DNA of 64,000 nucleotides. It comes from a virus. Taxonomy: Duplodnaviria > Caudoviricetes. Shown piece by piece: positions 1 through 47,271 of this stretch. The stretch lies in IMG/VR virus record IMGVR_UViG_3300025413_001239. One strand, written 5' to 3'. Position numbers and translations under genes: made by a program. Positions within the stretch are counted from its first letter, which is position 1; each line of letters begins with the position of its first letter. Under the pieces are notes generated by a model. That model worked only from the letters and a program-made list of their open reading frames with translations, did no database searches and was not told the DNA's origin.

Positions 1-41
1 GTAGGTCAAAAGATTTGCAAGTTCGAACCTTGTTACCCTCA
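1..41 (+). tRNA. 3' part of a tRNA cut by the window edge (isotype not determinable)
   Basis: T-arm gcaag-TTCGAAC-cttgt followed by acceptor 3' strand and ACA. Confidence 0.6.
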
Positions 42-44
42 CAA

Positions 45-126
45 AGATGATTTCAGCAAATAAATAGGATAAAAATTTACACTTAAAATGCAAATCGAAA
101 GGGTTCAAATCCCTAAAAATCATCTT
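45..126 (+). ncRNA. degenerate tRNA-Leu(TAA)-like element
   Basis: agatgat/atcatct acceptor-like stem, T-arm aggg-TTCAAAT-ccct, loop cTTAAaa on a weak stem, no proper D-arm. Confidence 0.45.
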
Positions 127-7522: not shown

Positions 7523-8123
7523 TATTGACGTTTCAGATGGTAAAAATGTATTTTTTATCAGTGATTTACACTTAGGTCATCGAAATGTTATTAAGTATGA
7601 TAATCGACCATTTGTTACGGCAAATGGTGAACCAGACTTAGATTTAATGCATGAAACAATTATAAGAAATTGGAATTCTGTGGTTGGTGAATATGATGTT
7701 GTTTTTAATCTTGGTGATTTATGTTTCGGTAGTACTCAGTTAGCTAAAGAAGTTGTCTTTAAGTTAAATGGTAGAATCCATTATATAATAGGTAATCATG
7801 ATAACTACAAGGATATACTTAATTTAAATCGTTTTGATACTGTTAGTGATTTAATTGATTTAAACATATCTGGTGGTAAAGTATCTAAAAATTTACACAT
7901 GGTACTGTGTCATTATCCAATATACTCTTGGAATCGAGCACACCATAATAGTTATCATCTTCACGGCCATTGCCATGGTAATTTGCATCATGGTGAAAAT
8001 GCTGATTATTACATCGGCAGAAGGGTTATAGATGTTGGTTGTAATCTTATAAATTATACACCAATATCATATATTGATGCTATAACAAAAATAGAAGAAA
8101 ATTGGGTTAAAAAATCTAACTAA
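7512..8123 (+). CDS. calcineurin-like metallophosphoesterase
   Basis: SDLHLGH...LGDL...GNHD...HGHCH. Confidence 0.85.
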   Translation: MKINIDVSDGKNVFFISDLHLGHRNVIKYDNRPFVTANGEPDLDLMHETIIRNWNSVVGEYDVVFNLGDLCFGSTQLAKEVVFKLNGRIHYIIGNHDNYKDILNLNRFDTVSDLIDLNISGGKVSKNLHMVLCHYPIYSWNRAHHNSYHLHGHCHGNLHHGENADYYIGRRVIDVGCNLINYTPISYIDAITKIEENWVKKSN

Positions 8124-8145
8124 TCATATTAATAATATATAAAAA

Positions 8146-9453
8146 ATGGGAAGAAGTAAACAATTAGAAAAAATAATTAGAGAAATGGGAAAAAACACAA
8201 AAGCTGCTAGGGTTTCTAATGAAATCGAAGATTACATTGGTTATGATGAATTAGTACCCGTAATTTCGGATGATGAAATTGAGGAAGATTCTGAGTATCC
8301 AACAAATGGTGAGAGTTTTTCAATAACTTTCATTGAATTTGCGATATTTAATGAATATTTTTATGAGATTTATCGTAAAAAATCTGACGCTATAACTGTT
8401 AAAAGTTATGGTCACACAGATAGTGTTGGTAGGGTTAGCTTCGGCGCACCGTTCAATGTGACCAATAGTTGGTGGTTCAATGCAAATTTAGCTGATGATA
8501 CAAATGATTATATCTTCCAAACAAAGATGTTTTTGGATGGTAACCGTACAATCATCACAGAACTTCATGTAAGCCCTAAAAACGGCCTAAGTATGAAGAA
8601 ATTAACCGAGGTTTATAAGAAAGTTAAAGGACTTGCTTTTAACAACTCTAAGTTCAAGGGTAAGTGTATTGAGGTTAAATTGTATGATGGTAACTTCAAG
8701 GGTATTGATATTATCGATATGAGTAAGTACTCAACTAATCTTATACTTAGTGAGACACAAAGAAAATTCATTGACCACTTTATCAGTAGGGTTGCCAGAG
8801 GTGGTAACGCAAGATACTTGTTGAATGGTGAACCAGGTACGGGTAAAACTGAAAGCATTCGTGAAGTGGTTCAAAAGTTGATTCCAGATGTAACGTTTAT
8901 CATACCTAAATTTAGTCAAGCTGAGGACCTTACAGTTATTCTTGAGGCTTGTGAAATATTCGATAAGGGTGTTATCATAATGGATGATATTGACTTGTAC
9001 TTGGGTTCAAGAGACAGAGGTAGTTATACAAGCCTTTTAGGTCAATTTTTATCATTCTTTGATGGTGTTAAAAAGAGAAAAATCAGTCTTTTGGCATCAA
9101 CTAATGATAAGGGTCTTGTGGATAAAGCTGCTGAAAGACCAGGTCGTTTCAACATGACCTTAGATTATACATTCCTTACGAGAGAACAAATTGAGGGTGT
9201 TTGTAAGATACATCTTCCAGCTGAGTATTGCATTGAAGAAATCTATGATGTTTTAACAAGCAACATTGATGGTAAATCCGCTAAAATAACTGGTGCGTTT
9301 ATTGCAAACCTTGCTGACAACATAAAGGAAATGTCTGAGGACAGTGATGATTGGAAGTTAGATGATACAATCTCTTTGATTAAAGAATCTTACAAGGGCT
9401 TCTACATGAGTCAAACCAATAAGAACGCTTCAATAGGGTTCAAAGTTAATTAA
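8146..9453 (+). CDS. AAA+ ATPase
   Basis: Walker A GEPGTGKT, Walker B IIMDDID, STN and RPGRF motifs. Confidence 0.85.
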   Translation: MGRSKQLEKIIREMGKNTKAARVSNEIEDYIGYDELVPVISDDEIEEDSEYPTNGESFSITFIEFAIFNEYFYEIYRKKSDAITVKSYGHTDSVGRVSFGAPFNVTNSWWFNANLADDTNDYIFQTKMFLDGNRTIITELHVSPKNGLSMKKLTEVYKKVKGLAFNNSKFKGKCIEVKLYDGNFKGIDIIDMSKYSTNLILSETQRKFIDHFISRVARGGNARYLLNGEPGTGKTESIREVVQKLIPDVTFIIPKFSQAEDLTVILEACEIFDKGVIIMDDIDLYLGSRDRGSYTSLLGQFLSFFDGVKKRKISLLASTNDKGLVDKAAERPGRFNMTLDYTFLTREQIEGVCKIHLPAEYCIEEIYDVLTSNIDGKSAKITGAFIANLADNIKEMSEDSDDWKLDDTISLIKESYKGFYMSQTNKNASIGFKVN

Positions 9454-19324: not shown

Positions 19325-20173
19325 ATGAAAGTATTTAGAATACAAGACAAGATTACGTCTAGAGAAACTGGTACATTTAAGCAATACTTAAATGACATTG
19401 CAAACATTAAGCCATTTACACCTTCTGAAGAAGAAGCATGCGCAAAAATGGCTGCTATGGGTGATAAAGCGGCTATTGACGAGTTGGTAACACGTAATTT
19501 AAGATTTGTAGTAACAGTTGCTAAGCAATACGAAACATCAACCATAAGCCTAGAGGATTTGGTTAATGAGGGTAATATTGGATTAATACTTGCCGCTGAG
19601 AAGTATAATTTAACCATGGGCTTTAAGTTTATCACTTACGGTGTATTCTGGATTAGAAAACTAATCTTGGAATATCTATCCAATCATAGCAAATTAATCA
19701 GGCTACCAACCAATAAAATTTCTAACATTAGCAAATTAACACAAAAGGTTAATGCGTTAGAACAAAGCCTAGGTCGTGAGGTTGATATTACTGAAGTAAA
19801 CTATGCTTCTGATTCAGACCTATCTGATGAAGATATTTTAGAACTTCAAAGAATATCAAATATTAGTTTTGAATCATTTGATTCACCATTAGATGGTGAT
19901 GAAGTTGGTTCTCGTTATGATTTTATTGCTAATACTAACGAAAAAACAACTGACCACATTGTGCTTGATACAGACTTAAAGAATCAAATTAATGATATAT
20001 TAAATATTCTTAAGCCTAGGGATAAAAAGGTTATGATTTCTTTGTTTGGTTTAGATGGTTCAAATCCATTAACCCTAAAAGAAGTTAGTGAAGATGTTGG
20101 GTTAACTAGTGAGATGGTTAGAAAAATTAAGGAAAGCAGTCTTGTTAAACTTAGAAATAAGTTTACGTTATAG
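19325..20173 (+). CDS. sigma70-family RNA polymerase sigma factor (regions 1.2-4)
   Basis: NLRFVVTVAKQY, DLVNEGNIGLILAAEKY, FITYGVFWIR, TLKEVSEDVGLTSEMVRKI. Confidence 0.9.
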   Translation: MKVFRIQDKITSRETGTFKQYLNDIANIKPFTPSEEEACAKMAAMGDKAAIDELVTRNLRFVVTVAKQYETSTISLEDLVNEGNIGLILAAEKYNLTMGFKFITYGVFWIRKLILEYLSNHSKLIRLPTNKISNISKLTQKVNALEQSLGREVDITEVNYASDSDLSDEDILELQRISNISFESFDSPLDGDEVGSRYDFIANTNEKTTDHIVLDTDLKNQINDILNILKPRDKKVMISLFGLDGSNPLTLKEVSEDVGLTSEMVRKIKESSLVKLRNKFTL

Positions 20174-20750
20174 GGTTATGTACACAATATTTCTTTATGT
20201 CTCGATTAACCTTAGAACATAATGGTTGTAAATTAGAATAGTGGTTTAATCGAAGTAATTCAATTTCATTAATCGCTGAGTCTAAGGGTATTATATGGTC
20301 AATATCCCAACCATAATTTAATTCACCATTATATAACCCACGATTATTCCAATTCATCCATGGTTCAAATTTTGATTCTAAATATAATTTAAAATCATCG
20401 TAAGAGCATCCAAGTATTTTTTCTGTTTTTGATAATTTTTTAAAATTATTATGTCTTAATGAGTTTCCGATTAAATTTCTTATATTAGTTTTTAATTTGA
20501 ATAAGGTATCATTATTACGTTTTACCTTATAATATTCGTTAAGTTTATTTTTATTTTCCTTAGCCCATTTTTTTGAGCTATCTAAGATTTTATCTTTATT
20601 TGTTTCGTAATACGCTTTTTTACTTTCTTTAATTTTATCTCGATTGTTCTCTAAGTATTTTCTTCTTTTTTCTTTATTAGCTGCTTGATATGCTTTATCA
20701 TAAATTCGTTTAGCCTCTTTTTTTTCCTCTAATGTTAATTCTTTTTTCAT
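20163..20750 (-). CDS. HNH-family homing endonuclease, paralog 2
   Basis: WMNWNNRG...WDIDHIIP...NHYSNLQPLCS. Confidence 0.85.
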   Translation of the reverse strand: MKKELTLEEKKEAKRIYDKAYQAANKEKRRKYLENNRDKIKESKKAYYETNKDKILDSSKKWAKENKNKLNEYYKVKRNNDTLFKLKTNIRNLIGNSLRHNNFKKLSKTEKILGCSYDDFKLYLESKFEPWMNWNNRGLYNGELNYGWDIDHIIPLDSAINEIELLRLNHYSNLQPLCSKVNRDIKKYCVHNPIT

Positions 20751-33067: not shown

Positions 33068-33736
33068 TTAAAGGTTAACCTTATTTCTTTTTATATGTCT
33101 ATTGTAATAACTACACAGTGGTTGAAGATTACTATAATACCATAGTCTAATAAGTGTCTCTTCATCCTCAGCTAAACTTGTTGGAATTATATGGTCAATA
33201 TCCCAACCATAATTTAATTCACCATTGTATAGGCCATAGTTATCCCAATTCATCCATGATTCCCATTTAGATTCAATAAATAATTTAAATTGTTCACTTG
33301 AACATCCTAATATATCTATAGTTCTATTTTTCTTACTGAAATTATTGGTCTTAAATATTTTTTTTAAATTTGTTCTAATGTTTTCTTTTAATGCGAAAAA
33401 TCTATCTGAATGATATTTCTTTTTTCTTTTGATTGTTTCATTCTTATTAATTTTTTCTTTATTTTGTTTATAATATGTTTTACGTTTCTCTTTAATAATT
33501 TCCGAATTTTCTATATAATAAACTTTACGCTTCTGGCTAATAGTCTTTTTATTTTCAATATACCTTTTTTTTCTGTATTTGCTTATTTTTTCATCGTTTA
33601 AAATCGCTGTTTTTTTACTTCGTTCTATTGAGCATATTTTACAATCATTACGCCTACCATCAACAGCATCAAGTCTTTTATAAAAGTCGGTTAATGGTTT
33701 TTCAGTACCACATTTATTACATATTTTTGTTTCCAT
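33068..33736 (-). CDS. HNH-family homing endonuclease, paralog 4
   Basis: CNKC...WDIDHIIP...NLQPLCS; stop lies in a 34-bp palindrome (33053-33086). Confidence 0.85.
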   Translation of the reverse strand: METKICNKCGTEKPLTDFYKRLDAVDGRRNDCKICSIERSKKTAILNDEKISKYRKKRYIENKKTISQKRKVYYIENSEIIKEKRKTYYKQNKEKINKNETIKRKKKYHSDRFFALKENIRTNLKKIFKTNNFSKKNRTIDILGCSSEQFKLFIESKWESWMNWDNYGLYNGELNYGWDIDHIIPTSLAEDEETLIRLWYYSNLQPLCSYYNRHIKRNKVNL

Positions 33737-34358: not shown

Positions 34359-35132
34359 ATGAATAAAGTATTTAAGCCATTTGAGTTTATATCAGAAACC
34401 ACAAAGCGAACTATCATGCTTGGGTTTATCGGGTTAGTATTAGGGTTTTGGGTGGTAATGTCGGCAACATCAACAACTCATCTATTTCCCTCAGTTAAGC
34501 AAGTATTCGCAGGATTCTCAGACTTGTATGCTGATGGACTTGTGGTCCATGTATTTAGCTCATTAGGGCTGTTTTTAAAGGCTACACTCATCTCAATCAT
34601 AGTTTCTCTCATTCTTTGTTATTCTGCCCCAATTTCGGCTCTTAGACCCATAGCGGTATTTGTTTCTAAGCTAAGGTATTTACCATTAACAGGTATATCA
34701 TTTTATATTGCAATTTTGGTTCATGAAGCTAGGTCTGTTCAAGTCTGGATTCTAGTTGTGTTTATGACAACATTCCTCACAACTAGTCTTTTACAAATGC
34801 TTACTGATATTCCCGAAGAAGAATTAGACCATGCAAGAACACTTGGTTGCAGCCGATGGGAAATATTACTTGAGGTAGTTATAAAAGGTAGATTAGACTA
34901 TGTATTTGAAATGGTAAGACAAAATTTAGCTATGATTTGGATGCTTCTTGTATCAATTGAGAGTATACTTGCATCAGCTGGTGGTATCGGGTTTCTTATC
35001 AAAAATAATGACAAGTTAGGTGATAACGGCAAAGTAATTGCTTTGCAAATTATCATAATAGCAATTGGTGTTTTTTTAGATTTCACATTAACAAAACTAC
35101 GTAAATTAATCTTCAGATACTCAAATTTTTAA
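34359..35132 (+). CDS. ABC transporter permease (NitT/TauT/SsuC-like)
   Basis: 6 TM; IPEEELDHARTLG EAA-like loop; LASAGGIGFLI. Confidence 0.85.
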   Translation: MNKVFKPFEFISETTKRTIMLGFIGLVLGFWVVMSATSTTHLFPSVKQVFAGFSDLYADGLVVHVFSSLGLFLKATLISIIVSLILCYSAPISALRPIAVFVSKLRYLPLTGISFYIAILVHEARSVQVWILVVFMTTFLTTSLLQMLTDIPEEELDHARTLGCSRWEILLEVVIKGRLDYVFEMVRQNLAMIWMLLVSIESILASAGGIGFLIKNNDKLGDNGKVIALQIIIIAIGVFLDFTLTKLRKLIFRYSNF

Positions 35133-35134
35133 AA

Positions 35135-35974
35135 ATGAATTATACATCAACCGATACAATTTTATACCTTGATAAGGTTAGCGTGGGTTATAAAGATAAA
35201 AATGACCACAGCAAAGTAAATATGATACTTAAAGACGTATCATTGGAAGAAAAAGACATTCACCGTGAAGGTCATTCAGCTACTGGTCAAACAATAGCCT
35301 TTATTGGTCGTTCAGGTCGTGGTAAATCAACACTTTTTAAGGCCTTAACTGGTCTGTTGAAACCTACAAGTGGTAAAGTACTTATCATGGATGGTAACCC
35401 TAATATTCATAATTCAGCTAAAGAAGTTGCTGAGGGCGATGTTGGATTTGTTGACCAGAAGTATACGCTTTTTCGTCATAAAACTCTCACCCAGATTCTA
35501 CATTATGCGATGCGCAAGATAAACAAGACCAAACAAGAAAAGGATGCTATTATTGATAGTTATTTAGCTGATTGGGGTCTTGCTGAACATAAGGATAAGT
35601 ACCCTTGTGAACTATCAGGTGGTCAAAGGCAACGTACAGCGATACTTGAACAGATGCTTACATCTAAGCACTTTATCGTGTTGGATGAACCAGCATCGGG
35701 ACTTGATGTTTACGCAATCGAAAAGATGAAATCGTCATTTAATAAAATTTTATCTGATGATGAATTGAATACTATTATCTTTAGCACTCACGACATTAAA
35801 TTAGCCGTTGAAATGGCTGATAGTATTTATGTAATTGGTCGTCCAGAAGGTGTGGAATACAGTACTATTTTAAGACATTTTGATTTAAAACAAATGGGTA
35901 TTGCTTGGCAAGAGTATGGAAATGCTCATAGACAATTAACTCAAGATATTAAAAGTTTATTACTTAATTCTTAA
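35135..35974 (+). CDS. ABC transporter ATP-binding protein
   Basis: GRSGRGKST, LSGGQRQR, VLDEP, H-loop STHD. Confidence 0.9.
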   Translation: MNYTSTDTILYLDKVSVGYKDKNDHSKVNMILKDVSLEEKDIHREGHSATGQTIAFIGRSGRGKSTLFKALTGLLKPTSGKVLIMDGNPNIHNSAKEVAEGDVGFVDQKYTLFRHKTLTQILHYAMRKINKTKQEKDAIIDSYLADWGLAEHKDKYPCELSGGQRQRTAILEQMLTSKHFIVLDEPASGLDVYAIEKMKSSFNKILSDDELNTIIFSTHDIKLAVEMADSIYVIGRPEGVEYSTILRHFDLKQMGIAWQEYGNAHRQLTQDIKSLLLNS

Positions 35975-36762
35975 TTATCACGTTTGATATTACGATTGTG
36001 ATAACTACAAAGTGGTTGAAGATTGGAGTAATGATTTAATTTAATTACTTCGTCTTCAACTTTTGTTGTTTTAAGAGGTGTAATATGGTCAATATCCCAA
36101 CCATAGTTTTCAGTTCCGTTATAAAGTCCATAGTTATCCCAATTCATCCATGGTTCAAATAACCCCTCAAGATGCTGTTTAAACTCTTCAAATGTGCAAC
36201 CTAATATTTCGTATGTCTTAGATTTTTTTGTATAACCACCGTTTTTTATACTAACATTTATTCTATGTCGAATAGCATCTTTAGCTCGATAAAAAGGGTC
36301 TTTACGTTTTTCTATCAGTGATAGTTTTTCACGTTTTCTAACTTTATCCCAGTTATTTTTTCTATACTCTTTTTGTCTAATTTTTATACGTTCTTTATTT
36401 GCTTCGTAATAAGCTTTTAGTTTTTCTTTATTCTTTTGCGTATATTCGAAAGATTTTTGTTTTATCTTATCTTTATTCGCTTCTCGATATTTAAGTTTAA
36501 TTACTTTACTTTGTTCTTTAATACGGTCATTATTTTTCTGATACCATTGTTTTTTATATTCTTTTAGTTTATCAGAATTTAATTTAGCGTATTCTTTTTT
36601 TGTTACTGCGTATTTATCAAAGTTTTTTAAATATTCGGTGTGTTTCTTTTCTTTTTCACAAGACTTACAATAAGACCTTAATTTATTCTTAGTTTTATTG
36701 TATATTGTAAAACCAGATAATTGAATATCTAATTGGCATATACTACAAACTTTACTTTCCAT
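35971..36762 (-). CDS. HNH-family homing endonuclease, paralog 5
   Basis: CSIC...WDIDHITP...NHYSNLQPLCS; stop overlaps the ABC ATPase stop. Confidence 0.85.
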   Translation of the reverse strand: MESKVCSICQLDIQLSGFTIYNKTKNKLRSYCKSCEKEKKHTEYLKNFDKYAVTKKEYAKLNSDKLKEYKKQWYQKNNDRIKEQSKVIKLKYREANKDKIKQKSFEYTQKNKEKLKAYYEANKERIKIRQKEYRKNNWDKVRKREKLSLIEKRKDPFYRAKDAIRHRINVSIKNGGYTKKSKTYEILGCTFEEFKQHLEGLFEPWMNWDNYGLYNGTENYGWDIDHITPLKTTKVEDEVIKLNHYSNLQPLCSYHNRNIKRDN

Positions 36763-36910
36763 CTGACTTAAATTTATTGAAATATTCAACTAATAACCAG
36801 TTGATTAGTTTTGATTTGTTCTCTTGGTTTAATAATTGATAATTTTCCTCAGAAATACTAATACTCAGTTTTTTCTTTTTGTTCTCAGTAGACTTTTGTT
36901 TTCTTCCCAT
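36752..36910 (-). CDS. ribbon-helix-helix-like DNA-binding protein
   Basis: manual translation MGRKQKSTENKKKKLSISISEENYQLLNQENKSKLINWLLVEYF...; overlaps the HNH start. Confidence 0.6.
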   Translation of the reverse strand: MGRKQKSTENKKKKLSISISEENYQLLNQENKSKLINWLLVEYFNKFKSDGK

Positions 36911-37186
36911 AATTGTGATGTTTATATATAATAAATATCACGAGTTTTCTGAAAAATTCGTATTGTTACGAATTTTATTTTTAAAATGTTCGGTAAGTAA
37001 TGAATCAATTAGTTTAGATTTATTAAATTTACCCTCATCTAATTTTTTAAGAATTTCTTGGTCTAAGGCAATGCTAATTTTTTTTGGGTTATTTTTCATA
37101 AAAATAAATATAATAAATTATTTGTCTAAGTCAATTAATGTTCGTATATTTGCATCCTAATCAATATTTATATAAAAAAAAAAGAA

Positions 37187-37354
37187 ATGAAAAGAGTTTT
37201 ATCAGCATTAGCGTTAGTCGCTTTAGTAACTTTGGCAGCTTGTGGTTCGGGAACCAGCCAAAATGACACAACAAATGACACTTTGTCATCTGTAGGACCT
37301 GATACGTCTTATGGTATAACAATTGATACTACCAAGTTAGATTCTACTAAGTAG
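37187..37354 (+). CDS. small lipoprotein (55 aa)
   Basis: MKRVLSALALVALVTLAA-C lipobox; Thr/Asp-rich tail (manual). Confidence 0.75.
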   Translation: MKRVLSALALVALVTLAACGSGTSQNDTTNDTLSSVGPDTSYGITIDTTKLDSTK

Positions 37355-37437
37355 AGTTAATAAGTGTTTCAAGCTAAGTGAATTACGGGTGTTCTTTTGA
37401 ACACCCAAAATTTACACCCGAATTAAAAATTAATGTT

Positions 37438-37872
37438 ATGGATTTATTTGATGATTTATTTAATGATTTTTTTAAGAATCGTAAACCGATTAAAAAAGTT
37501 GATGATAAGCCATTCATAAGTGAATTAAAAAGTCTTATGAATGCATTAAGTGATTTTAAAACCTTCGACCCAGAAGAAGGTGAAGAAATCCAAAATAAAT
37601 TGGGTGAACCAGATGAGGTTCAAAAATTTGTTGAAAATGACATGCACTTCACCAGATTAATCTGGAATACACCACATGGTAAATTCATTAAGGTTCTTGT
37701 TACAAATGACCCAGATTCTTTTGAATTACCAACATATGATAAGGAACCTAAATCTCTTCAAGAACAACTTGATGAAGCGGTTGAAGCTGAGAATTTTGAA
37801 TTAGCTATCAAATTAAGGGACCAAATCAACGGTACAAAAAAAGTTAAAAGAACTAGGAAAAAAGTTGAATAA
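37438..37872 (+). CDS. UvrB/UvrC-motif (UVR) domain protein
   Basis: LQEQLDEAVEAENFELAIKLRDQI. Confidence 0.75.
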   Translation: MDLFDDLFNDFFKNRKPIKKVDDKPFISELKSLMNALSDFKTFDPEEGEEIQNKLGEPDEVQKFVENDMHFTRLIWNTPHGKFIKVLVTNDPDSFELPTYDKEPKSLQEQLDEAVEAENFELAIKLRDQINGTKKVKRTRKKVE

Positions 37873-37934
37873 AAATTTGTTAGTTTGAAATAACTAACGT
37901 ATATTTGCAGAGTAATTAAAAACAAAGCAAATTT

Positions 37935-38005
37935 GGTTCTATAGCTCAACGGCAGAGCTGGACTCTCTAAAAGTCTTGATGTTGGTTCGATTCCGACTAG
38001 AATCA
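37935..38005 (+). tRNA. amber-suppressor tRNA (anticodon CTA)
   Basis: ggttcta/tagaatc acceptor; agct D-stem; ggact-ctCTAaa-agtct; gttgg-TTCGATT-ccgac; own TATATTTGC promoter. Confidence 0.85.
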
Positions 38006-38053
38006 CACTTTACATTTTTTAACAATTATTGTATATTTATAAAAAAAAGAAAT

Positions 38054-38410
38054 ATGACACATTAGGTATCTAACACTGAGAAATTAAGAGTAATCACAAG
38101 AAGAGACTTGAGTTTAGGGTATCAAGCAACAATGGCATGTCATGCTGCAATAGACTTTCAGCACGAACATATAGCTGAGTCGATACAATGGCACAAGTCA
38201 TCTAATTATTTAGCCATTTTAACTGTTAAAGACGAACAAGAACTTATTGACTTAATGGTCAAAGTTAGTCTTAGAGGTATTAAGTATACCATTTTCCGTG
38301 AACCAGATTTAGAGAATCAAATTACAGCTGTGGCTTTAGAAGCTACAAATGCTAGTAAAAAAGTAACAAGTTCTTTACCATTACTTGGAAAGGAGGTAAG
38401 TTATGTATAA
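38054..38410 (+). CDS. Pth2-like peptidyl-tRNA hydrolase with in-frame TAG at codon 4
   Basis: ATG ACA CAT TAG GTA...KLRVITRRDLSLGYQATMACHAA...FREPDLENQITAVAL...SLPLL. Confidence 0.75.
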
Positions 38411-38753
38411 TTTACTAGAAAACGAAACTTGTAGTTTACAGGGTTGTTTAGCTGATAAAGCTTATGCTATTGTTGATTTATCAACGAAAAGGGTTCATAG
38501 AATAAGTTTCAGCAAATCATTATTAGAGCATATTATAGACACAACCGATAGTCCTTTTGTTGTAAAAGAGGTAACATTTGTTTTAGGTCGAAAATTGTTA
38601 AGTGGTGAAACTAGTTTAACGGGTATATATGCCTTGGTTAAGAGTAAAAATAATTGGACATTACGAATTTCTTTATTTAAAGATATTGCAAACTATCTTT
38701 GTGATTTTGAAACTAGAAGTCTTAGAGAGTGTATAATAACAAAAATTAATTAA
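38403..38753 (+). CDS. hypothetical protein
   Basis: ORF overlapping the Pth stop. Confidence 0.65.
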   Translation: MYNLLENETCSLQGCLADKAYAIVDLSTKRVHRISFSKSLLEHIIDTTDSPFVVKEVTFVLGRKLLSGETSLTGIYALVKSKNNWTLRISLFKDIANYLCDFETRSLRECIITKIN

Positions 38754-38757
38754 TAAA

Positions 38758-38965
38758 GCGCCTTTAGTTTAACTGGATAAAATATCCGAGTCGAATCGGA
38801 AGTGGTGTTGGCTTTTTAAGGTTGTGAAAGCTAGATTGAAACGTCAAAGGGAGGTTGCAACAGTACCGATGATTAGTAAACTAGTTAGTAATGGTAAACG
38901 GGCTAAAAAACGTATTTAGTCTCTTAACTGGTCAAACGGTGGGGGTTCGAATCCTTCAGGGTGCT
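38758..38965 (+). ncRNA. tRNA-Arg-like RNA with about 130-nt insertion in the variable region
   Basis: gcgcctt/agggtgc acceptor, D-arm, tccga/tcgga stem with 6-nt loop, T-arm ggggg-TTCGAAT-ccttc about 140 nt later. Confidence 0.55.
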
Positions 38966-39082
38966 CATTAAATAACAAATTAAAAATAGAAAAATATGAG
39001 ATAGGTAATCAGGGGTCCAACATGACTTTAAATTTTATAAAAAAAACATCAACAATAACAAAAAAAATAAAATTTAAAGAAA

Positions 39083-39382
39083 ATGAGTAAGATTAGTCAC
39101 AACCCAACAACAATGATAAAGAGCAAGTTCTCTAACGAAGTGCATAAATTAATTTTAGGCCCTAACATGGGTACAAAAACACGTGATAGGTGGCGTTTAC
39201 CTAAAAAGAAATTAACTGATGCTGAAAAGCTTGAGTTGTTTGATAAGATAGTGGAAGCGCATAATTCATGCACAGCTGAGTTAACAGCTTATCAATATGA
39301 TAGGCGAGAAAAGAAAAGAATCAAAAAAGCACGTATTGCTCGTGGCTGGGTGCCAAAAGTTAAGACAAAAAAAGTAGCATAA
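39083..39382 (+). CDS. basic hypothetical protein
   Basis: ORF followed by terminator hairpin. Confidence 0.65.
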   Translation: MSKISHNPTTMIKSKFSNEVHKLILGPNMGTKTRDRWRLPKKKLTDAEKLELFDKIVEAHNSCTAELTAYQYDRREKKRIKKARIARGWVPKVKTKKVA

Positions 39383-39471
39383 ATTAAAGGGAGAAGAAAT
39401 TCTCCTTTTTTATTTGGTAGTGTTAAGTAAATACCATATATTTGCATTTTATTAAACATAAAATTATACGC

Positions 39472-41442
39472 ATGAAAAATTTACTTACATTGATTTGCTT
39501 ATTAGTAACATTTCAATTAATCGCACAAGACACAATTAAGTCAAAGACTCTAGAACCAATACAAATTACTTGTGTTAGGGCTGATAAGAAAATCCCAGTA
39601 ACACAAAAAACGCTCTCCGATTCGGCTATTCAAGCGAATTATCAGGGTCAAGAAATACCTATGTTGTTAGGTTCTCAAACATCAATTTACACGAATTGTG
39701 ATGGTGGTCATAACGCTGGTTATAGTTACTTTAGCATCAGGGGTATTGACCAAACAAGAATAAACATAACTCTTAATGGTGTTCCATTGAATGAAGGTGA
39801 AGACATGGCTTGTTATACGTCTAATTATCCAAGTTTTACCAGCGCAATTCAATCTATGCAAATTCAACGTGGTGTGGGTACATCATCTAACGGCGCATCA
39901 TCCTTCGGTGGCTCATTGAACTTTCAAAGCAAGGATGGCCTTATTAAGGGTACTGATATTCAAATAGGTGGTGGTTCATTTAATACATCAAGATTTGACA
40001 TATCCACATCCACAGGTTTATCCAAACACAAATTAGCCTTATTCGCTAATATTGGTGGTATACAAACTGATGGCTTTAGAGATAATTCAGGTTGTAAGGG
40101 TGGTTCCGCTTTTGTGAGTCTTGGTTACTTCGGGAAGTCTAGTATTACAAAACTTAACCTATTAACAGGAATATCACAAAACAAACAAGCTTGGATGGGT
40201 TCAAGTGATTCAGCATTAGCAGCTAATTATCGTGATAACCCAAGAGGTGGTGATAATATGGATAATTTCAATCAAACGAATGTTCAATTGCAGAACATAA
40301 CAATGTTTAATACACGGTTTAAATTAACCAGCACTGCGTTTTATAATTACTTAGATGGTCACTATAATGTGTTTAACTTAAAGGATATACCAGTTAATAA
40401 TTATTTTGCATACGAAAGCCAGTATTCACGATGGATTGGTGCGGTAACTCAATTAGATTATAACTATGGTGATTTTAAGGTTACTTCAAGCCTTTCAGCC
40501 AGTACTTATACGAGGTTCCATAATGGTTATGAGATTTACGATACAACACTTACTGAATATCCCTATACTAATAGTGGTAAAAAGAATGATGCAAATGCAT
40601 TCATAAAGTTTAGTTATGACACTAAAAGAGTCTTGTATTATATCGACTTACAAGAAAGATTTGTTGATTATAAGTACTCTGGTGATACAAGTGTTTATCA
40701 AAGCTGGAAGTTCTTTAACCCAAAGGCTGGTGTTAAGTTCTTCATAAACAAGAGTTTGGATGTGTATTGGAGCGTAGGTTTATCTCATAGAGAACCAACA
40801 CACTCAATAATGCTTAATGGTTGGTTGTACTTAAACTCTTATAATCCGATTACAATAGTTAAGCCTGAGGAAGTAATTGATAATGAAATAGGTGTAAATT
40901 ACACGTCAAGTAAACTAAAATTACAAGCTAATGTTTATGTAATGAAATTTACGAATGAAATGATAGCTGCTGGGCCGATGGGTAATAACAGTCTTCCTAT
41001 TATGATGAATGTTCCTAATAGTCTAAGATATGGCTTCGAATTTGATTGTACTTATAAAGTAAATAAGTCGTTTACTTATGATATTAATTCAACATTATCT
41101 AATGGTCAGTTTAAAGTTGATAGCGGTACGTATAGCTACTTATTTAATCCAAATTTTATGTTTAAGCATTCGATTAACTATACACATAATAAGTTATTTG
41201 TAAGCCTTAATCAAGCATATATTTCAAGAGTTTACATTGATAAGGCTAATCAATTTACTTTGCCAATATCATCTACAATCGGTTTGAATCTTGGATATAC
41301 CTTTGGTCGTTATCAAGTATCAATTCAGGGTAACAATTTAACAGGTGAGAAGACTTATAGCAATGGTTCAGTTACTGGTGTTAGGTATAGAATACCTAAC
41401 GCTTTACAAAATTACTTCATAACCCTTAAAATACACTTATGA
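39472..41442 (+). CDS. TonB-dependent receptor
   Basis: signal peptide, plug motifs (SIRG, RINITLNGVPLN, IQRGVGTSSNG..SFGGSLN), beta-barrel, C-terminal YFITLKIHL. Confidence 0.9.
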   Translation: MKNLLTLICLLVTFQLIAQDTIKSKTLEPIQITCVRADKKIPVTQKTLSDSAIQANYQGQEIPMLLGSQTSIYTNCDGGHNAGYSYFSIRGIDQTRINITLNGVPLNEGEDMACYTSNYPSFTSAIQSMQIQRGVGTSSNGASSFGGSLNFQSKDGLIKGTDIQIGGGSFNTSRFDISTSTGLSKHKLALFANIGGIQTDGFRDNSGCKGGSAFVSLGYFGKSSITKLNLLTGISQNKQAWMGSSDSALAANYRDNPRGGDNMDNFNQTNVQLQNITMFNTRFKLTSTAFYNYLDGHYNVFNLKDIPVNNYFAYESQYSRWIGAVTQLDYNYGDFKVTSSLSASTYTRFHNGYEIYDTTLTEYPYTNSGKKNDANAFIKFSYDTKRVLYYIDLQERFVDYKYSGDTSVYQSWKFFNPKAGVKFFINKSLDVYWSVGLSHREPTHSIMLNGWLYLNSYNPITIVKPEEVIDNEIGVNYTSSKLKLQANVYVMKFTNEMIAAGPMGNNSLPIMMNVPNSLRYGFEFDCTYKVNKSFTYDINSTLSNGQFKVDSGTYSYLFNPNFMFKHSINYTHNKLFVSLNQAYISRVYIDKANQFTLPISSTIGLNLGYTFGRYQVSIQGNNLTGEKTYSNGSVTGVRYRIPNALQNYFITLKIHL

Positions 41443-41981
41443 TAGAGTTTATTGGTGCTTTATTCACGCTTTTATCAGCATATTATACTGTAAAAGAAAA
41501 GGTCATTTGTTGGCCGTTAGCGATAGCATCAACGATTATCTACATATATTTACTATATATTGAGAAATTGTATGGTCAGGTATTTGTCGATATATTAACG
41601 TTATTTCAATGCGCTTACGGTTGGTATTATTGGGATAAAACTGATAATAAGCAGCCTGAAAGACTTAAACCCATTAAGTTTGTTAGAGATATATTTCTTT
41701 TAGTTCTAATATCTAGTATTACAATATACTACATAAGAACATATACTAATAATCCACAACCAGTATCGGATATTACGTCAACATACTTAGCACTTTTAGC
41801 TAATTGGTATTTAGCTAAGAAGTTTATTGATGGGTTTTATGTTTGGGTTATAGCCGATATAATACTAGCGTATATGTTTTATTATCAACATATGTATTGG
41901 TCAATGGGTTTATTTATTATTTTAATAGGGTTCGCCCTTCAAGGTCAATTCGCATGGCAAAAGAGTTTAAAAACGGACTAG
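41439..41981 (+). CDS. pnuC: PnuC-family nicotinamide riboside transporter
   Basis: multi-TM; LYGQ...YGWYYW, ANWYLAKK, WVIAD. Confidence 0.85.
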   Translation: MIEFIGALFTLLSAYYTVKEKVICWPLAIASTIIYIYLLYIEKLYGQVFVDILTLFQCAYGWYYWDKTDNKQPERLKPIKFVRDIFLLVLISSITIYYIRTYTNNPQPVSDITSTYLALLANWYLAKKFIDGFYVWVIADIILAYMFYYQHMYWSMGLFIILIGFALQGQFAWQKSLKTD

Positions 41982-42955
41982 TACTTGGGAAATGTTTTCC
42001 ATTTCACTTAGGACATAAATATCTTATTGATTCAGCAATTAAGCAATGTGATACGGTTCACGTTATGGTTTGTTCACTTAAACGTGAAAATATAGCTGGT
42101 GAATTACGTTATGAATGGGTTAAAGAAACATATATGAATAACCCTAGTGTGAATGTTATTCATTGTGATGATGAAAATCCTCAACATCCACCAGAATGTG
42201 CTAGTGTTGATGAATTTTATAATAAGTATTGGGTACCGACTGTATACAAGCATGTTAAGGAACTGGATGTTGTATTTACTTCTGAGGATTACGGTGATGA
42301 ATTTGCCAGTTACTTAGGTGTTAAGCATGTGCTTGTTGATAAAGCTAGAACAGCTTATCCTGTATCTGGAACTTCGGTTAGAGAGAATCCTTATGCAAAT
42401 TGGGATTTAATACCTGATAATGTTAAAAAATACTTTATTAAAAAGATTGTTATTTTAGGTCCTGAATCTGTTGGTAAATCAACGATGGTTAAAAAGTTGG
42501 CTGAGCATTTGGGTTGTAAGTATATCGATGAGTTCGGTAGGACTTATACTGAATTAACTGGAACTGATAATCTTCAAATATTTGATTTTGAAGCGATAGC
42601 TCATTGGCATAATCATCATATTGAAAAGGCTGAAATTGATAAGTACTTAATAATTGATACAGAAGCGATTACAACTAAGATATTTGCTGAAATGTACTTA
42701 GGTAAACGTGAAAGTGAATCTAAATTCATAGATGAAATCATAAGTGAGCAACATTTCGATTTATACTTAGTGCTAAACGTTGATGTTCCTTGGGTTGATG
42801 ATGGTACAAGAGACTTTCCAGAGGGTCGTGAAGAGCATCTAAACACTATTATCTCTAATTTAGAGGAAAGAGGTTTAGAATACAAGCTTATTAGCGGTGA
42901 TAATTACGATGAAAGATTTGAAAAAGCCTTAGAAGAAGTTAAAAAGTTGGGATGA
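41954..42955 (+). CDS. nadR: NadR-like NMN adenylyltransferase / ribosylnicotinamide kinase
   Basis: GKCFPFHLGH HxGH motif; GPESVGKST Walker A; DVPWVDDGTR. Confidence 0.9.
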   Translation: MAKEFKNGLVLGKCFPFHLGHKYLIDSAIKQCDTVHVMVCSLKRENIAGELRYEWVKETYMNNPSVNVIHCDDENPQHPPECASVDEFYNKYWVPTVYKHVKELDVVFTSEDYGDEFASYLGVKHVLVDKARTAYPVSGTSVRENPYANWDLIPDNVKKYFIKKIVILGPESVGKSTMVKKLAEHLGCKYIDEFGRTYTELTGTDNLQIFDFEAIAHWHNHHIEKAEIDKYLIIDTEAITTKIFAEMYLGKRESESKFIDEIISEQHFDLYLVLNVDVPWVDDGTRDFPEGREEHLNTIISNLEERGLEYKLISGDNYDERFEKALEEVKKLG

Positions 42956-42958
42956 CAT

Positions 42959-44194
42959 TTAAATAACAATTAAATCGTTATTTATTTGATTACGGACATT
43001 ATTGTTCATAATCACACTAGTGTAATCCAGTGGCTTTGTCATTGAAGCAAGGTGATTGTCGTAATATCTTTTCATTATGTTGATAGCTGAGTTTAAATCT
43101 CTATCTATTTCGACATTATCACTTAGTTTAACAGTTCTATCCTTTAACTCAACTTTATCTTTAAATAGCTTACCAGTAAGACTATTCAATTGAGTGGTGT
43201 ATTTTTCATCAATCTTAATTAAATCACATTGTTTATTTTGTGACTTATACTTAAGAAATTCTAAGAACATATTAATATTAGATTCATTAAATGATTTTCT
43301 AATACCCTTTTTATTCTTATTTACTCCTTCTGTTGACATAAGGGTTTTTACTGTTAAATCGCCAACTACAATTGTTTTGTAGTTCATATTCACTAATTTT
43401 TTACTCTGAATATGTAGAGTTTGTTTAATTTGACTATTCTTCTTATTATATAGTTTTCTTTTAACTTTATTTAATTTATTAAAGGATTTACTATTCTTTT
43501 GTTTTTTGCTTAACTTAGACTTAATCTTATTAATCTGTTTACCGAAGTACTGATTAATCCTCTTTGATTTATTTTTAAGAATAACAACGGTACCATTGTT
43601 ATCCACACCAGTACCTAAATTCTTTAGACCTAAATCAATAGCGAGTACTCTTGATTTAATTATTAAATCATCTGAGTAGTTTATTTTATCATCGACAACA
43701 ATATCACAAAGCCACTTATTATTAATAAATTTGACTCTAATTTCTTTAATATTTAATTCAGATAAGTTTGTTAAATGACTTGAATATTTAAAATTAATTT
43801 TATTTATTGAAATTATACTATTTTCTTTGAATATCCAACCATTTAGGTTAAAAACTAATGTATGATACTTTCCGAGTTCTTTTGTCTTTGGTGGTCTAGC
43901 TGTATTATCTTTTTTAATAAGTGTGAAGAAAGATTGGTATGATTGAAATATTTCAGCTGCCACAACTTGTGCTGCTTTTGCATTAAATTGTTTCCAAGAT
44001 TCCTTGGTTGAATATTTCAATGGTGGAATGAGGTTAATTAAATCAAACTTTGAGTATACCTTTTTAGTTGATTCATAGTGTTTTTGCTGAATATCAATAA
44101 GAGTGTTCCAAATATCCATACGAATATCAGACAACTGTTTTAGTTGAGATACCTGTTCTGTTGTTGGGTGTAACCTTATTGAGTATGTTTTCAT
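42959..44194 (-). mobile_element. tnpB: IS200/IS605-type TnpB RNA-guided nuclease without TnpA, rearranged-RuvC type
   Basis: KTYSIRLHPT; AIDLG; VVGDL; IDEKYTTQ; DRDLNSAINI. Confidence 0.85.
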
Positions 44195-46128: not shown

Positions 46129-47271
46129 ATGATAGATAAAATTGGTATTAGATATACGTTTAAGATTTCGGTACCACTAGATGTTTTAAAGATAAAAGAA
46201 GTTTTTACTAAGAATGGTCATCAACTATTTCTAGTTGGTGGTTGTATTCGTGATACCATATTAAATGTAACACCTAAAGATTTTGATTTAGTTACAAATG
46301 TTTCGCCAGAAGAGGTTATTAGAATTTTAAAGCATGAAAAGTTTGTTACAACAATATTAGAAACTGGAAAATCATTTGGTGTTATTAATGTTATAACTAG
46401 CGATAATGAATTTGAAATTGCTACGATGCGCAATGATGTGTTTAGTGATACACCAAATGGGAGGCATCCAGACCGTGTTATCTTTGGTGATATTTTTACT
46501 GATTGTATGCGAAGGGATTATACCATGAATGCGCTTTTTTATGACTTAGATACTAATGAAATAATTGACTTCGTTAATGGTGTTAATGATATTGAAAAAT
46601 CTTTAATTAAGGCGGTTGGGAATCCAGAAGAAAGATTTAAAGAAGATAAATTACGCAAACTTAGGGGCGTTAGGCTGGCGGCCAGATTTGGCTCTGAATT
46701 GGACCCTGAGATTGATGCCGCATTAAAAAGAGATGCCAGTCTGGAAGGTATATCTGGTGAAAGAATCAGAGATGAGTTTATAAAGGGTATCAAATCAGCT
46801 AAGTCAGTTGTTAAATTCTTGGAAATGCTTGATAGGTATCATTTATTTAATTGGATATTTAAGGGCTTACATGTAAATAAAGACTTTATTGAGGATAGAA
46901 ATGTTGTAGTTCTTATTGCTATTTTATTAAAGGGTAACAACATAGGTGTTATAGCTAAGCAATTGAACAATCTTAAGTATTCTGTTGATGAGATTAAATC
47001 AATCACATTCTTATTGAGTTTATTGCATTTAACACCTGAGACAGCAGTTGCTTTAAAGAGACAACAAAAGAACGCTTACACATCAAATCATCAAATAATT
47101 GATTTTGCTAACCGTGAAGGTTTAAATACAAGATTGATACATGCGTTTTTAAATTTTGAGTTGACCGTTACTGGCGAAGAAGTTATGCAAAAGTTCAATT
47201 TGAAGCAAGGCAAAGAGTTAGGTGATATGATAAATAAATTGGAATTGGATAATTTTAAAAAAAGTTTGTAA
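46129..47271 (+). CDS. cca: CCA-adding tRNA nucleotidyltransferase
   Basis: LVGGCIRD, KDFDLVT, RRDYTMNA, EDKLRKLRGVR, SGERIRDE. Confidence 0.9.
   Translation: MIDKIGIRYTFKISVPLDVLKIKEVFTKNGHQLFLVGGCIRDTILNVTPKDFDLVTNVSPEEVIRILKHEKFVTTILETGKSFGVINVITSDNEFEIATMRNDVFSDTPNGRHPDRVIFGDIFTDCMRRDYTMNALFYDLDTNEIIDFVNGVNDIEKSLIKAVGNPEERFKEDKLRKLRGVRLAARFGSELDPEIDAALKRDASLEGISGERIRDEFIKGIKSAKSVVKFLEMLDRYHLFNWIFKGLHVNKDFIEDRNVVVLIAILLKGNNIGVIAKQLNNLKYSVDEIKSITFLLSLLHLTPETAVALKRQQKNAYTSNHQIIDFANREGLNTRLIHAFLNFELTVTGEEVMQKFNLKQGKELGDMINKLELDNFKKSL

Follow-up and report, generated by a model that had tools for sequence, protein, structure and literature searches.

Why would a phage that ends some of its genes with TAG encode a tRNA carrying the matching CUA anticodon, and place it directly upstream of a peptidyl-tRNA hydrolase-like (Pth2-like) gene whose own reading frame is interrupted by TAG at the fourth codon? 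This arrangement occurs in the 64,000-nucleotide stretch of viral DNA analysed here, which we call the window. The initial annotation interpreted it as a switch that makes production of the enzyme depend on read-through of UAG, and also raised the possibility of an early step toward TAG recoding.

A tRNA(CUA) and an amber-interrupted Pth2-like gene

The window has a G+C content of 30.6% and 11 tRNA genes, and its + strand is densely packed with coding sequence. A 160-kb IMG/VR viral contig (G1; CheckV completeness 45%, with 54 matches to the Rfam tRNA model) is syntenic with the window over about 60 kb. Because close homologs of the Pth2-like gene reside on contigs of 353-429 kb, the source of the window is likely to be a phage of about 350 kb. 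The features relevant to this question are as follows.

37900..37907, + strand: promoter-like box TATATTTG, 27 nt 5' of the tRNA (from motif counts; putative promoter function)
37935..38006, + strand: amber suppressor-type elongator tRNA, anticodon CUA at 37967-37969 (ARAGORN, Rfam RF00005)
38032..38039, + strand: another promoter-like box (TATATTTA), in the gap that separates the tRNA from the Pth2-like gene, 22 nt before ATG 38054 (putative function)
38054..38410, + strand: Pth2-like gene of 118 codons, with ATG at 38054, in-frame TAG at 38063-38065 (codon 4) and TAA at 38408-38410 (translation, Pfam PF01981, AF2, Foldseek)
38108..38110, + strand: TTG taken as the start by ORF callers (residue 19; 100-codon ORF), located after strand b1 and K10, R16 and D18
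38403..38753, + strand: 116-codon ORF whose first 8 nt overlap the end of the Pth2-like gene (ORF list)
38996..39025, + strand: second amber mini-ORF, ATG AGA TAG GTA ATC AGG GGT CCA ACA TGA (M-R-amber-V-I-R-G-P-T; from conservation)

The tRNA(CUA) predicted by ARAGORN is 72 nt in length and scores 61.5 bits against the Rfam RF00005 model, for which the cut-off is 29. Its cloverleaf is canonical, as the initial annotation had described, with a 7-bp acceptor stem, GG in the D loop and a T loop of TTCGATT. The anticodon loop of 7 nt (c-t-CTA-a-a) carries U33 and a purine at position 37, and this loop is identical in the suppressor tRNAs of G1 and of two other relatives (G2 and G3). CCA is not encoded in the tRNA gene, and a gene for a CCA-adding enzyme is present in the window at 46129-47271.

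Two other identities for this tRNA were considered and rejected. An initiator-type tRNA that reads UAG as a start codon is inconsistent with the paired 1:72 position and with an anticodon stem that lacks the three G-C pairs. Likewise, tRNA-Pyl is characterized by a short D loop without GG, a 6-bp anticodon stem and a 3-nt variable loop, whereas the D loop of the window tRNA is ordinary and contains GG, and its anticodon stem is 5 bp long; the 'Pyl' label assigned by ARAGORN reflects the anticodon only. The nearest paralogs of the suppressor tRNAs vary from phage to phage (Gln, Lys, Arg or Leu tRNAs, at 64-78% identity), and their acceptor stems are not conserved. Database proteins that start with 'MTHQ' were rejected as evidence for glutamine insertion, as these entries arise from calling the TAG under code 15 and their Q is an artefact of gene calling.

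Candidate transcription signals are present before both genes. The TATATTTG box occurs 28 times on the + strand of the window versus 3 times on the - strand, with 18 of the 28 + strand copies located no more than 60 nt upstream of an ATG ORF and several others preceding tRNA genes. This box fits the -7 box of Bacteroidota promoters (TAnnTTTG). Similarly, most of the 41 distinct sequence contexts collected from relatives (see below) have a conserved TATATTTAT-type box some 20-25 nt before the ATG. Considering the promoter-like box together with the presence of relatives among Flavobacterium and Tenacibaculum phages, the host of this phage is probably a Bacteroidota bacterium.

The ATG of the Pth2-like gene is separated from the end of the tRNA by an A-rich, unstructured leader and lies 48 nt downstream of it. 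Translation from this ATG yields ATG-ACA-CAT-TAG in the same frame as the ORF that terminates at 38410, and the match of this reading frame to the Pfam PTH2 family (PF01981; 31.3 bits versus a cut-off of 23, with residues 11-110 aligned to positions 3-114 of the 115-position profile) bears out the earlier proposal that the frame continues past the TAG into a Pth2 domain. A PDB profile search with the protein returned 2zv3 at E = 1e-7, as well as 1rzw/3erj, 1wn2 and 1q7s, with an alignment that begins at K10, the equivalent of residue 2 of MJ0051. An AF2 model (39 homologs) has a mean pLDDT of 91.1 and a pTM of 0.84, although the pLDDT values at the N-terminus are below 50 for residues 1-3 and average 60 across the first ten. 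The top 13 Foldseek matches to this model are all members of the Pth2 family (Pth2, Bit1 and the homolog Ta0108), with TM values of 0.70-0.76.

Five residues that are invariant in the Pth2-like proteins (K10, R16, D18, H30 and T91) correspond to conserved positions in MJ0051. The phage clade lacks the G-K-G-K loop found in canonical Pth2, and its invariant Glu83 falls opposite the Asp of the RDAG motif in the alignment. The phage protein represents a divergent Pth2-like clade for which 'peptidyl-tRNA hydrolase' may be the wrong activity. The initial annotation had also placed the conserved first strand of the domain upstream of the TTG at which the listed ORF begins. This placement is confirmed by the model, in which strand b1 comprises residues 11-16, and Lys10, Arg16 and Asp18 likewise precede residue 19. 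TTG 38108 is probably not the real start. An RNA structure 3' of the TAG that might stimulate read-through was not found (MFE -9 kcal/mol, z-score 0.25 versus shuffled sequences).

The neighbouring ORF at 38403-38753 may be translationally coupled to the Pth2-like gene. This ORF is not conserved among relatives, and a tblastx comparison with G1 gave no match for it. Neither it nor the ORF at 39083-39382 has a Pfam, PHROG or Atlas match.

Conservation of the TAG codon and its linkage to tRNA(CTA)

The initial annotation had proposed examining whether the TAG is conserved among homologs and linked to a CTA tRNA. Scanning IMG/VR with a profile identified 57 homologous loci, with a readable N-terminus in 56, that encode proteins 49-79% identical to the window protein and that represent 41 distinct nucleotide contexts from independent assemblies. 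An ATG followed by 1-6 sense codons and then TAG is present at every one of the 56 readable loci, a uniformity that excludes chance, and neither TAA nor TGA takes the place of TAG at any locus. In these genomes TAA is by far the usual stop (about 76-84% of ORFs), yet it is never used at this site.

The sequences surrounding the TAG differ in their constraints. The leader codons preceding it vary freely (MTH, MK, MT, MN, MKDT, MKKPFYY and others), whereas in all 56 loci the TAG is followed by an Ile, Val, Leu or Thr codon and then by the conserved K-L-(R/I/V)-V strand. Overall, the protein is strongly conserved on both sides of the TAG. The codon immediately after the TAG is ATT, ATA, ATC, GTA, GTT, CTT or ACG, none of which is a common start codon. 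Furthermore, G1 has no ATG, GTG or TTG within the 114 codons that follow the TAG, and the first such codon in G3 is located 75 codons in. Initiation downstream of the TAG is not conserved among the relatives. Of the 41 gated ambers, 40 have a purine at +4, compared with 62 of the 118 TAG codons that genuinely terminate genes (p = 1.3e-8, Fisher's test); this bias may be no more than a consequence of the conserved Ile/Val residue.

In 49 of the 57 loci, a tRNA(CTA) gene resides within 3 kb of the Pth2-like gene; most often the two share a strand and the tRNA precedes the Pth2-like gene by 40-130 nt. A more distant subgroup instead has the tRNA about 0.7-1 kb downstream of the Pth2-like gene. 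Eight loci lack a tRNA(CTA) in their 3-kb flanks, and five of these are cut by contig ends. No CTA tRNA is present in the flanks examined for L054 and L074, nor in the complete genome G5, which carries a tRNA with the UUA (ochre-type) anticodon. By established wobble rules, UAG can also be decoded by a UUA-anticodon tRNA. Both parts of the module have been duplicated together in G2, where two tRNA(CTA) genes accompany two amber-containing Pth2-like genes. Four relatives (G2, G3, G5 and G6) encode an RF1-like protein of 173-198 residues 1-4 kb upstream of the module, and in G4 such a protein is encoded about 11 kb away; the copies from G2 and G3 carry PPT and GGQ motifs. This RF1-like protein was not found in the window or in G1.

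The same arrangement is evident beyond the IMG/VR relatives. In the cultured Tenacibaculum phage pT24 (234.7 kb, four annotated tRNAs), the codons ATG AAA TAG ATA lead into a Pth2-like domain, the annotated CDS begins downstream of the TAG, and 2.6 kb upstream there is an annotated tRNA-Sup. In the Mycobacterium phages Catera (ATG TAG GTG) and Myrna (GTG TAG GTG), the amber codon stands directly before the annotated GTG start, with a tRNA(CTA) 130-250 nt downstream that is annotated under another name in both records. The huge metagenomic phages LR756500 (462 kb) and LR756501 (735 kb) encode proteins beginning with MK-amber-I and MS-amber-I, respectively, and a tRNA(CTA) is near both. LR756501 also has a second internal TAG. 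Cellular homologs without the amber codon are essentially nonexistent, as a search of 185,579 prokaryotic species genomes yielded two matches. The closer of these is a 6.7-kb MAG contig with MK-TAG-I and a CTA tRNA. The pairing of tRNA and TAG is old, spanning phages of Bacteroidota, phages of Actinobacteria and the largest known phages.

The second amber mini-ORF, which had also been noted at 38996, is present and likewise conserved. Its nine-codon pattern, M-x-amber-[V/I/T]-[I/S]-R-G-P-T-stop, is found in seven distinct sequences from relatives (including G1, G2, L025, L027, L028 and L006), where it forms the best-conserved island of an otherwise divergent intergenic region. Among the R-G-P-T codons, all four third positions vary but none of the eight first and second positions do. 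If four variable sites were distributed at random among these 12 positions, all would be third positions in about 1 of 495 cases. This apparent coding signature past the TAG provides a second, independent hint of UAG read-through in these phages. No read-through RNA structure was found in the mini-ORF region (z = -0.81). The mini-ORF may encode a leader peptide that acts on the 99-codon gene starting at 39083.

Genetic code of the phages and candidate explanations for the TAG

The view that the genome is not globally recoded, as the initial annotation had held, is well supported. TAG terminates the ORFs at 11964, 20173 and 59533, and the Pth2-like gene is the sole TAG-interrupted gene in the window. 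ORFs of at least 100 amino acids cover 88.6% of the window under code 11. When ORFs of at least 100 codons were assembled with TAG as a sense codon, every other TAG in them could be explained by a short flank next to a normal start, by an antisense position relative to real genes or tRNA genes, or by use of another frame. For example, a candidate second amber gene at 47-868 was rejected because its HNH endonuclease starts at ATG 200, and the upstream TAG is non-coding and adjacent to tRNA-like remnants.

Similar results were obtained with two complete relatives, G3 (368,549 bp, 62 tRNAs including one CTA) and G5 (353,143 bp with terminal repeats, 60 tRNAs). We counted adjacent in-frame ORFs that merge when TAG is read as sense, and used TGA-as-sense merges as a control. 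There are four TAG merges in G3 and three in G5, versus one and two TGA merges, respectively. One of the four in G3 is the tRNA-plus-Pth2 region itself, and no other sizeable amber-interrupted gene is present in either genome. TAG serves as the stop codon for about 8-12% of scored ORFs (7 of 92 in the window). Genuine TAG stops are not followed by an excess of backup stops, as the median read-through extension is 4.5-9.5 codons compared with 6-7.5 for TAA; strong suppression would therefore carry a cost. Global or blockwise recoding of TAG was rejected based on these ORF statistics (window, G1, G2, G3 and G5) and the TGA-as-sense control. By these measures, the phages have standard-code genomes in which the suppressor tRNA has essentially one protein client.

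We consider it likely that the tRNA(CUA) and the Pth2-like gene constitute a conserved two-part module in which the full-length protein is made only when the phage tRNA decodes UAG. The earlier proposal of a suppressor-gated switch is strengthened by retention of the TAG in every homolog, by linkage to the CTA tRNA and by the lack of a conserved downstream start. In this proposed mechanism, ribosomes would start at ATG 38054 and reach UAG at codon 4. Action of RF1 at this codon would yield only a tripeptide, whereas decoding by charged phage tRNA(CUA), presumed to compete with RF1, would yield the complete 118-residue protein with the Pth2 fold. Enzyme output would then both depend on and report the activity of tRNA(CUA). 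Because the amber codon resides in a disordered N-terminal tail, the identity of the inserted residue should hardly matter and the abortive products would be tiny.

Three other explanations for the TAG itself were weighed against this gating mechanism. The ATG-x-x-TAG segment might be a regulatory uORF or minigene, with the enzyme initiated separately (through re-initiation or at the codon that follows the TAG) and the tRNA(CUA) serving another purpose. Such an arrangement is compatible with Catera and Myrna, in which initiation at the annotated GTG directly after the TAG could bypass the amber codon (with good Shine-Dalgarno spacing in Myrna), and with the ATT that follows the TAG in most Bacteroidota-type loci, as this is a rare but known start codon. 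We nevertheless consider it quite unlikely, since 10 of the 41 contexts have GTA, GTT, CTT or ACG at this position, which are not start codons, and a uORF in AT-rich genomes would be expected to end mostly in TAA. This explanation also leaves the tight linkage and co-duplication with tRNA(CTA) unaccounted for. Incipient or partial recoding to code 15, as in crAss-like and Lak phages, would make this amber codon one of several drifting into the genome. Low G+C content, rare TAG stops and a suppressor tRNA match the starting state proposed for recoded phages (bioRxiv 10.1101/2021.08.26.457843), and gene callers did choose code 15 on short contigs. However, complete relatives without another sizeable amber gene, TAG merges close in number to the TGA control and the continued use of TAG as a terminator all argue against this scenario. 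The codon is fixed in position among proteins with as little as 49% identity and across host phyla, which indicates that it is old and selected. The suggestion of an early step toward recoding is not upheld, and we judge it very improbable. Finally, the TAG could be a nonsense mutation or sequencing error in a dead or truncated gene that produces at most a TTG-start fragment, and ORF callers indeed report only the 100-codon TTG ORF. This reading is barely credible for a codon present in all readable loci from independent assemblies, with conserved protein sequence on either side, and the TTG product would lack strand b1, K10, R16 and D18.

If gating by the suppressor tRNA is indeed the function of the TAG, its purpose could be feed-forward compensation for the effects of suppression, a timer, or a brake on the phage's own tRNA. 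The feedback rationale of the initial annotation, in which suppression and drop-off would generate peptidyl-tRNA, is speculative. We favor a purpose in which a tRNA-recycling or tRNA-deacylating activity would be coupled to the level of amber suppression, acting as feed-forward compensation or as a brake. A specific version is a self-limiting homeostat, wherein the Pth2-like enzyme would deacylate its own gating tRNA or hydrolyse the peptidyl form. An increase in suppression would then raise the level of an enzyme that reduces it, and in this way shield phage genes that end in TAG. The exclusive pairing of one tRNA with essentially one protein client, the divergent Pth2 active-site loop, the RF1-like protein (PPT, GGQ) upstream of the module in relatives, and the lack of extra backup stops in TAG-ended phage genes are all consistent with this model. 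However, a feed-forward or timer role fits the same data equally well, and we consider the homeostat itself fairly unlikely. A broader conjecture, which we regard as possible if on balance doubtful, is a self-referential circuit in which the suppressor tRNA would license a Pth2-derived enzyme whose target is either this tRNA itself or what suppression produces. This circuit, the amber-gated R-G-P-T leader, a tRNA-like RNA with a G3.U70 acceptor and the mini RF1-like protein of relatives would form a 'termination-control island'. If true, such an island would set the strength of UAG read-through in the infected cell.

Comparison with known systems

Phages that have recoded TAG to Gln (code 15; crAss-like, Lak, Agate and Jade phages) depend on suppressor tRNAs for the expression of many late genes (bioRxiv 10.1101/2021.08.26.457843, PMC9523058). 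[quoted passage not shown] However, many structural and lysis genes are recoded in those phages, and their coding density increases under code 15. In contrast, the window phage uses the standard code with TAG as a terminator, and the apparent targets adjoining its tRNA are one protein client and a nine-codon mini-ORF. No hydrolase is mentioned in the report on recoded phages (bioRxiv 10.1101/2021.08.26.457843).

Suppressor tRNAs turn up regularly in phages with the standard code, and for two such phages the authors sought targets. None were found for the two CUA tRNAs of Xanthomonas jumbo phage XacN1 (PMC5852040), nor for the tRNA(CUA) of Stenotrophomonas phage Summit (PMC9022506). Those searches addressed C-terminal extensions past annotated stops, whereas the putative target in the window is an N-terminal amber codon upstream of the annotated start. 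We considered the canonical Pth2 of XacN1 (ORF295) as a target of its suppressor tRNAs and rejected it, because this gene has no amber codon. If the 'termination-control island' conjectured above is real, the orphan suppressor tRNAs of standard-code jumbo phages would gain their first identified clients.

PTH2 has been listed among the ribosome-rescue factors of jumbo phages by Iyer et al. 2021 (PMC7824862), a paper in which neither suppressor tRNAs nor an amber codon in the PTH2 gene is mentioned. The window protein shares a common fold with Pth2 proteins (PF01981; 2zv3, 3erj, 1wn2, 1xty and human Bit1 1q7s), and the K, R-x-D-L, H-A and T-A-V-A positions align. It differs from canonical Pth2 in belonging to a clade that is almost exclusive to phages, lacks G-K-G-K and carries Glu in place of the RDAG Asp.

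Two additional systems share features with this locus. The bar-type minigenes of phage lambda are ORFs of 2-4 codons with strong initiation regions that release short peptidyl-tRNAs and create a dependence on Pth in E. coli. ATG-ACA-CAT-TAG and ATG-AGA-TAG have the same form, but the window mini-ORF is in frame and continuous with a hydrolase-like gene, and it ends in the TAG codon that the adjacent tRNA is predicted to read. In the pyrrolysine system, tRNA-Pyl with a CUA anticodon decodes in-frame UAG codons in methylamine methyltransferase genes. Like the window phage, this system has a dedicated tRNA(CUA) near the genes that need UAG decoding while UAG remains a stop codon elsewhere, although the D loop and anticodon stem of the window tRNA are of the ordinary type, as described above.

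The module brings together two components of translation in a single compact circuit and looks like a natural, portable switch for UAG-dependent expression. Its amber codon is hidden by annotation, because gene callers start downstream of the TAG and systematically truncate these genes, or select code 15 on short contigs. The module is directly testable in cultured phages, such as pT24 with its Tenacibaculum host and the Bxz1-like phages of Mycobacterium smegmatis. In the open-access full-text literature, we found no published description of the pairing between a tRNA(CUA) and a Pth2 amber codon. Translation that depends on a suppressor tRNA is already known from the systems compared here. The new part is a dedicated and ancient one-tRNA-one-gene module in standard-code phages, which supplies a conserved target for their suppressor tRNAs.

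RF1-like gene and variants of the amber/suppressor pairing

An RF1-like protein of 173-198 residues is encoded in the related phages G2, G3, G4, G5 and G6, and both copies that were read (G2 and G3) carry a PPT (PxT-type) motif together with GGQ. In G2, G3, G5 and G6 this gene precedes the tRNA(CUA)/Pth2-like module by 1-4 kb, and in G4 the two are separated by ~11 kb. A tblastn search of the window and of G1, a 160-kb contig syntenic with it, found no copy of the RF1-like gene.

The complete 353-kb genome of G5 retains the amber in its Pth2-like gene and is without tRNA(CTA); an ochre-type tRNA is located 37 kb away. In LR756501.1, from a 735-kb phage, the reading frame of the Pth2-like gene contains a second TAG, ~40 codons in, and a pair of tRNA(CTA) genes resides side by side 2.1 kb downstream of the gene.

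G2 37011-37529 (within locus L018): RF1-like protein gene
G3 225489-226043 (within locus L090): RF1-like protein gene
G5 188241-188313 (within locus L111): tRNA, anticodon TTA
LR756501.1 (locus L124) about 3001-3315: Pth2-like gene

tRNA-like genes and CCA addition

Downstream of the module, the window holds an RNA that resembles a tRNA: its acceptor stem is intact and contains G3.U70, D and T arms are both present, the 'anticodon' loop has 6 nt, and there is a ~140-nt insert. Neither ARAGORN (introns allowed) nor Rfam calls this element. At the equivalent position in G1, ARAGORN reports an odd tRNA of ordinary length with a 'ggaa' anticodon, and the sequence immediately 3' of that tRNA is conserved.

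ARAGORN also reports tRNA-like genes with 'anticodons' of 2 nt or 4 nt (6-nt or 8-nt loops) in loci L022, L039 and L055 of relatives and in G3. Several odd-loop genes lie directly 3' of the Pth2-like gene, at the site occupied by tRNA-Cys in other relatives.

The window additionally encodes a CCA-adding enzyme, in which a PolyA_pol head domain is combined with an RNA-binding domain; this fits a suppressor tRNA gene that lacks an encoded CCA.

Window 38758-38965: tRNA-like RNA
Window 46129-47271: CCA-adding enzyme gene
L022 3690-3762; L039 3598-3667; L055 2512-2584: tRNA-like genes, odd anticodon length
G3 49566, 281534, 287024, 298254: tRNA-like genes, odd anticodon length

Mobile elements and other cargo

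A TnpB/IS605 OrfB-type gene (OrfB_IS605, Cas12f1-like TNB and HTH domains) is inserted between phage genes on the opposite strand, and G1 has no match to it at that position. The HNH/endonuclease VII-type genes are probably homing endonucleases. The three minus-strand genes are mutually related and all match a single G1 region (68.4-69.1 kb), and the plus-strand gene adjoins tRNA-like fragments; window positions 1-45 look like a tRNA 3' end. An apparent phage-borne NAD-salvage and uptake cluster comprises genes for a TonB-dependent receptor (Plug domain), an NMN transporter of the PnuC type and a protein resembling NadR, which combines Citrate_ly_lig and AAA_28 domains; ABC-transporter genes lie upstream.

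200-868, + strand: HNH/endonuclease VII-type gene
20163-20750, 33068-33736, 35971-36789, - strand: HNH/endonuclease VII-type genes
34359-35974: ABC-transporter permease and ATPase genes
39442-42955: apparent NAD-salvage and uptake cluster
42959-44194, - strand: TnpB/IS605 OrfB-type gene

Comparison with XacN1

Xanthomonas phage XacN1, a standard-code jumbo phage, has two CUA tRNAs, for which its authors looked for targets and found none. The amber is absent from ORF295 and also from the second, divergent Pth2-like domain that forms the C-terminal part of ORF364. ORF295 is a canonical Pth2 with a normal ATG start.

XacN1 (locus L126) 8043-8459, - strand: ORF295, canonical Pth2
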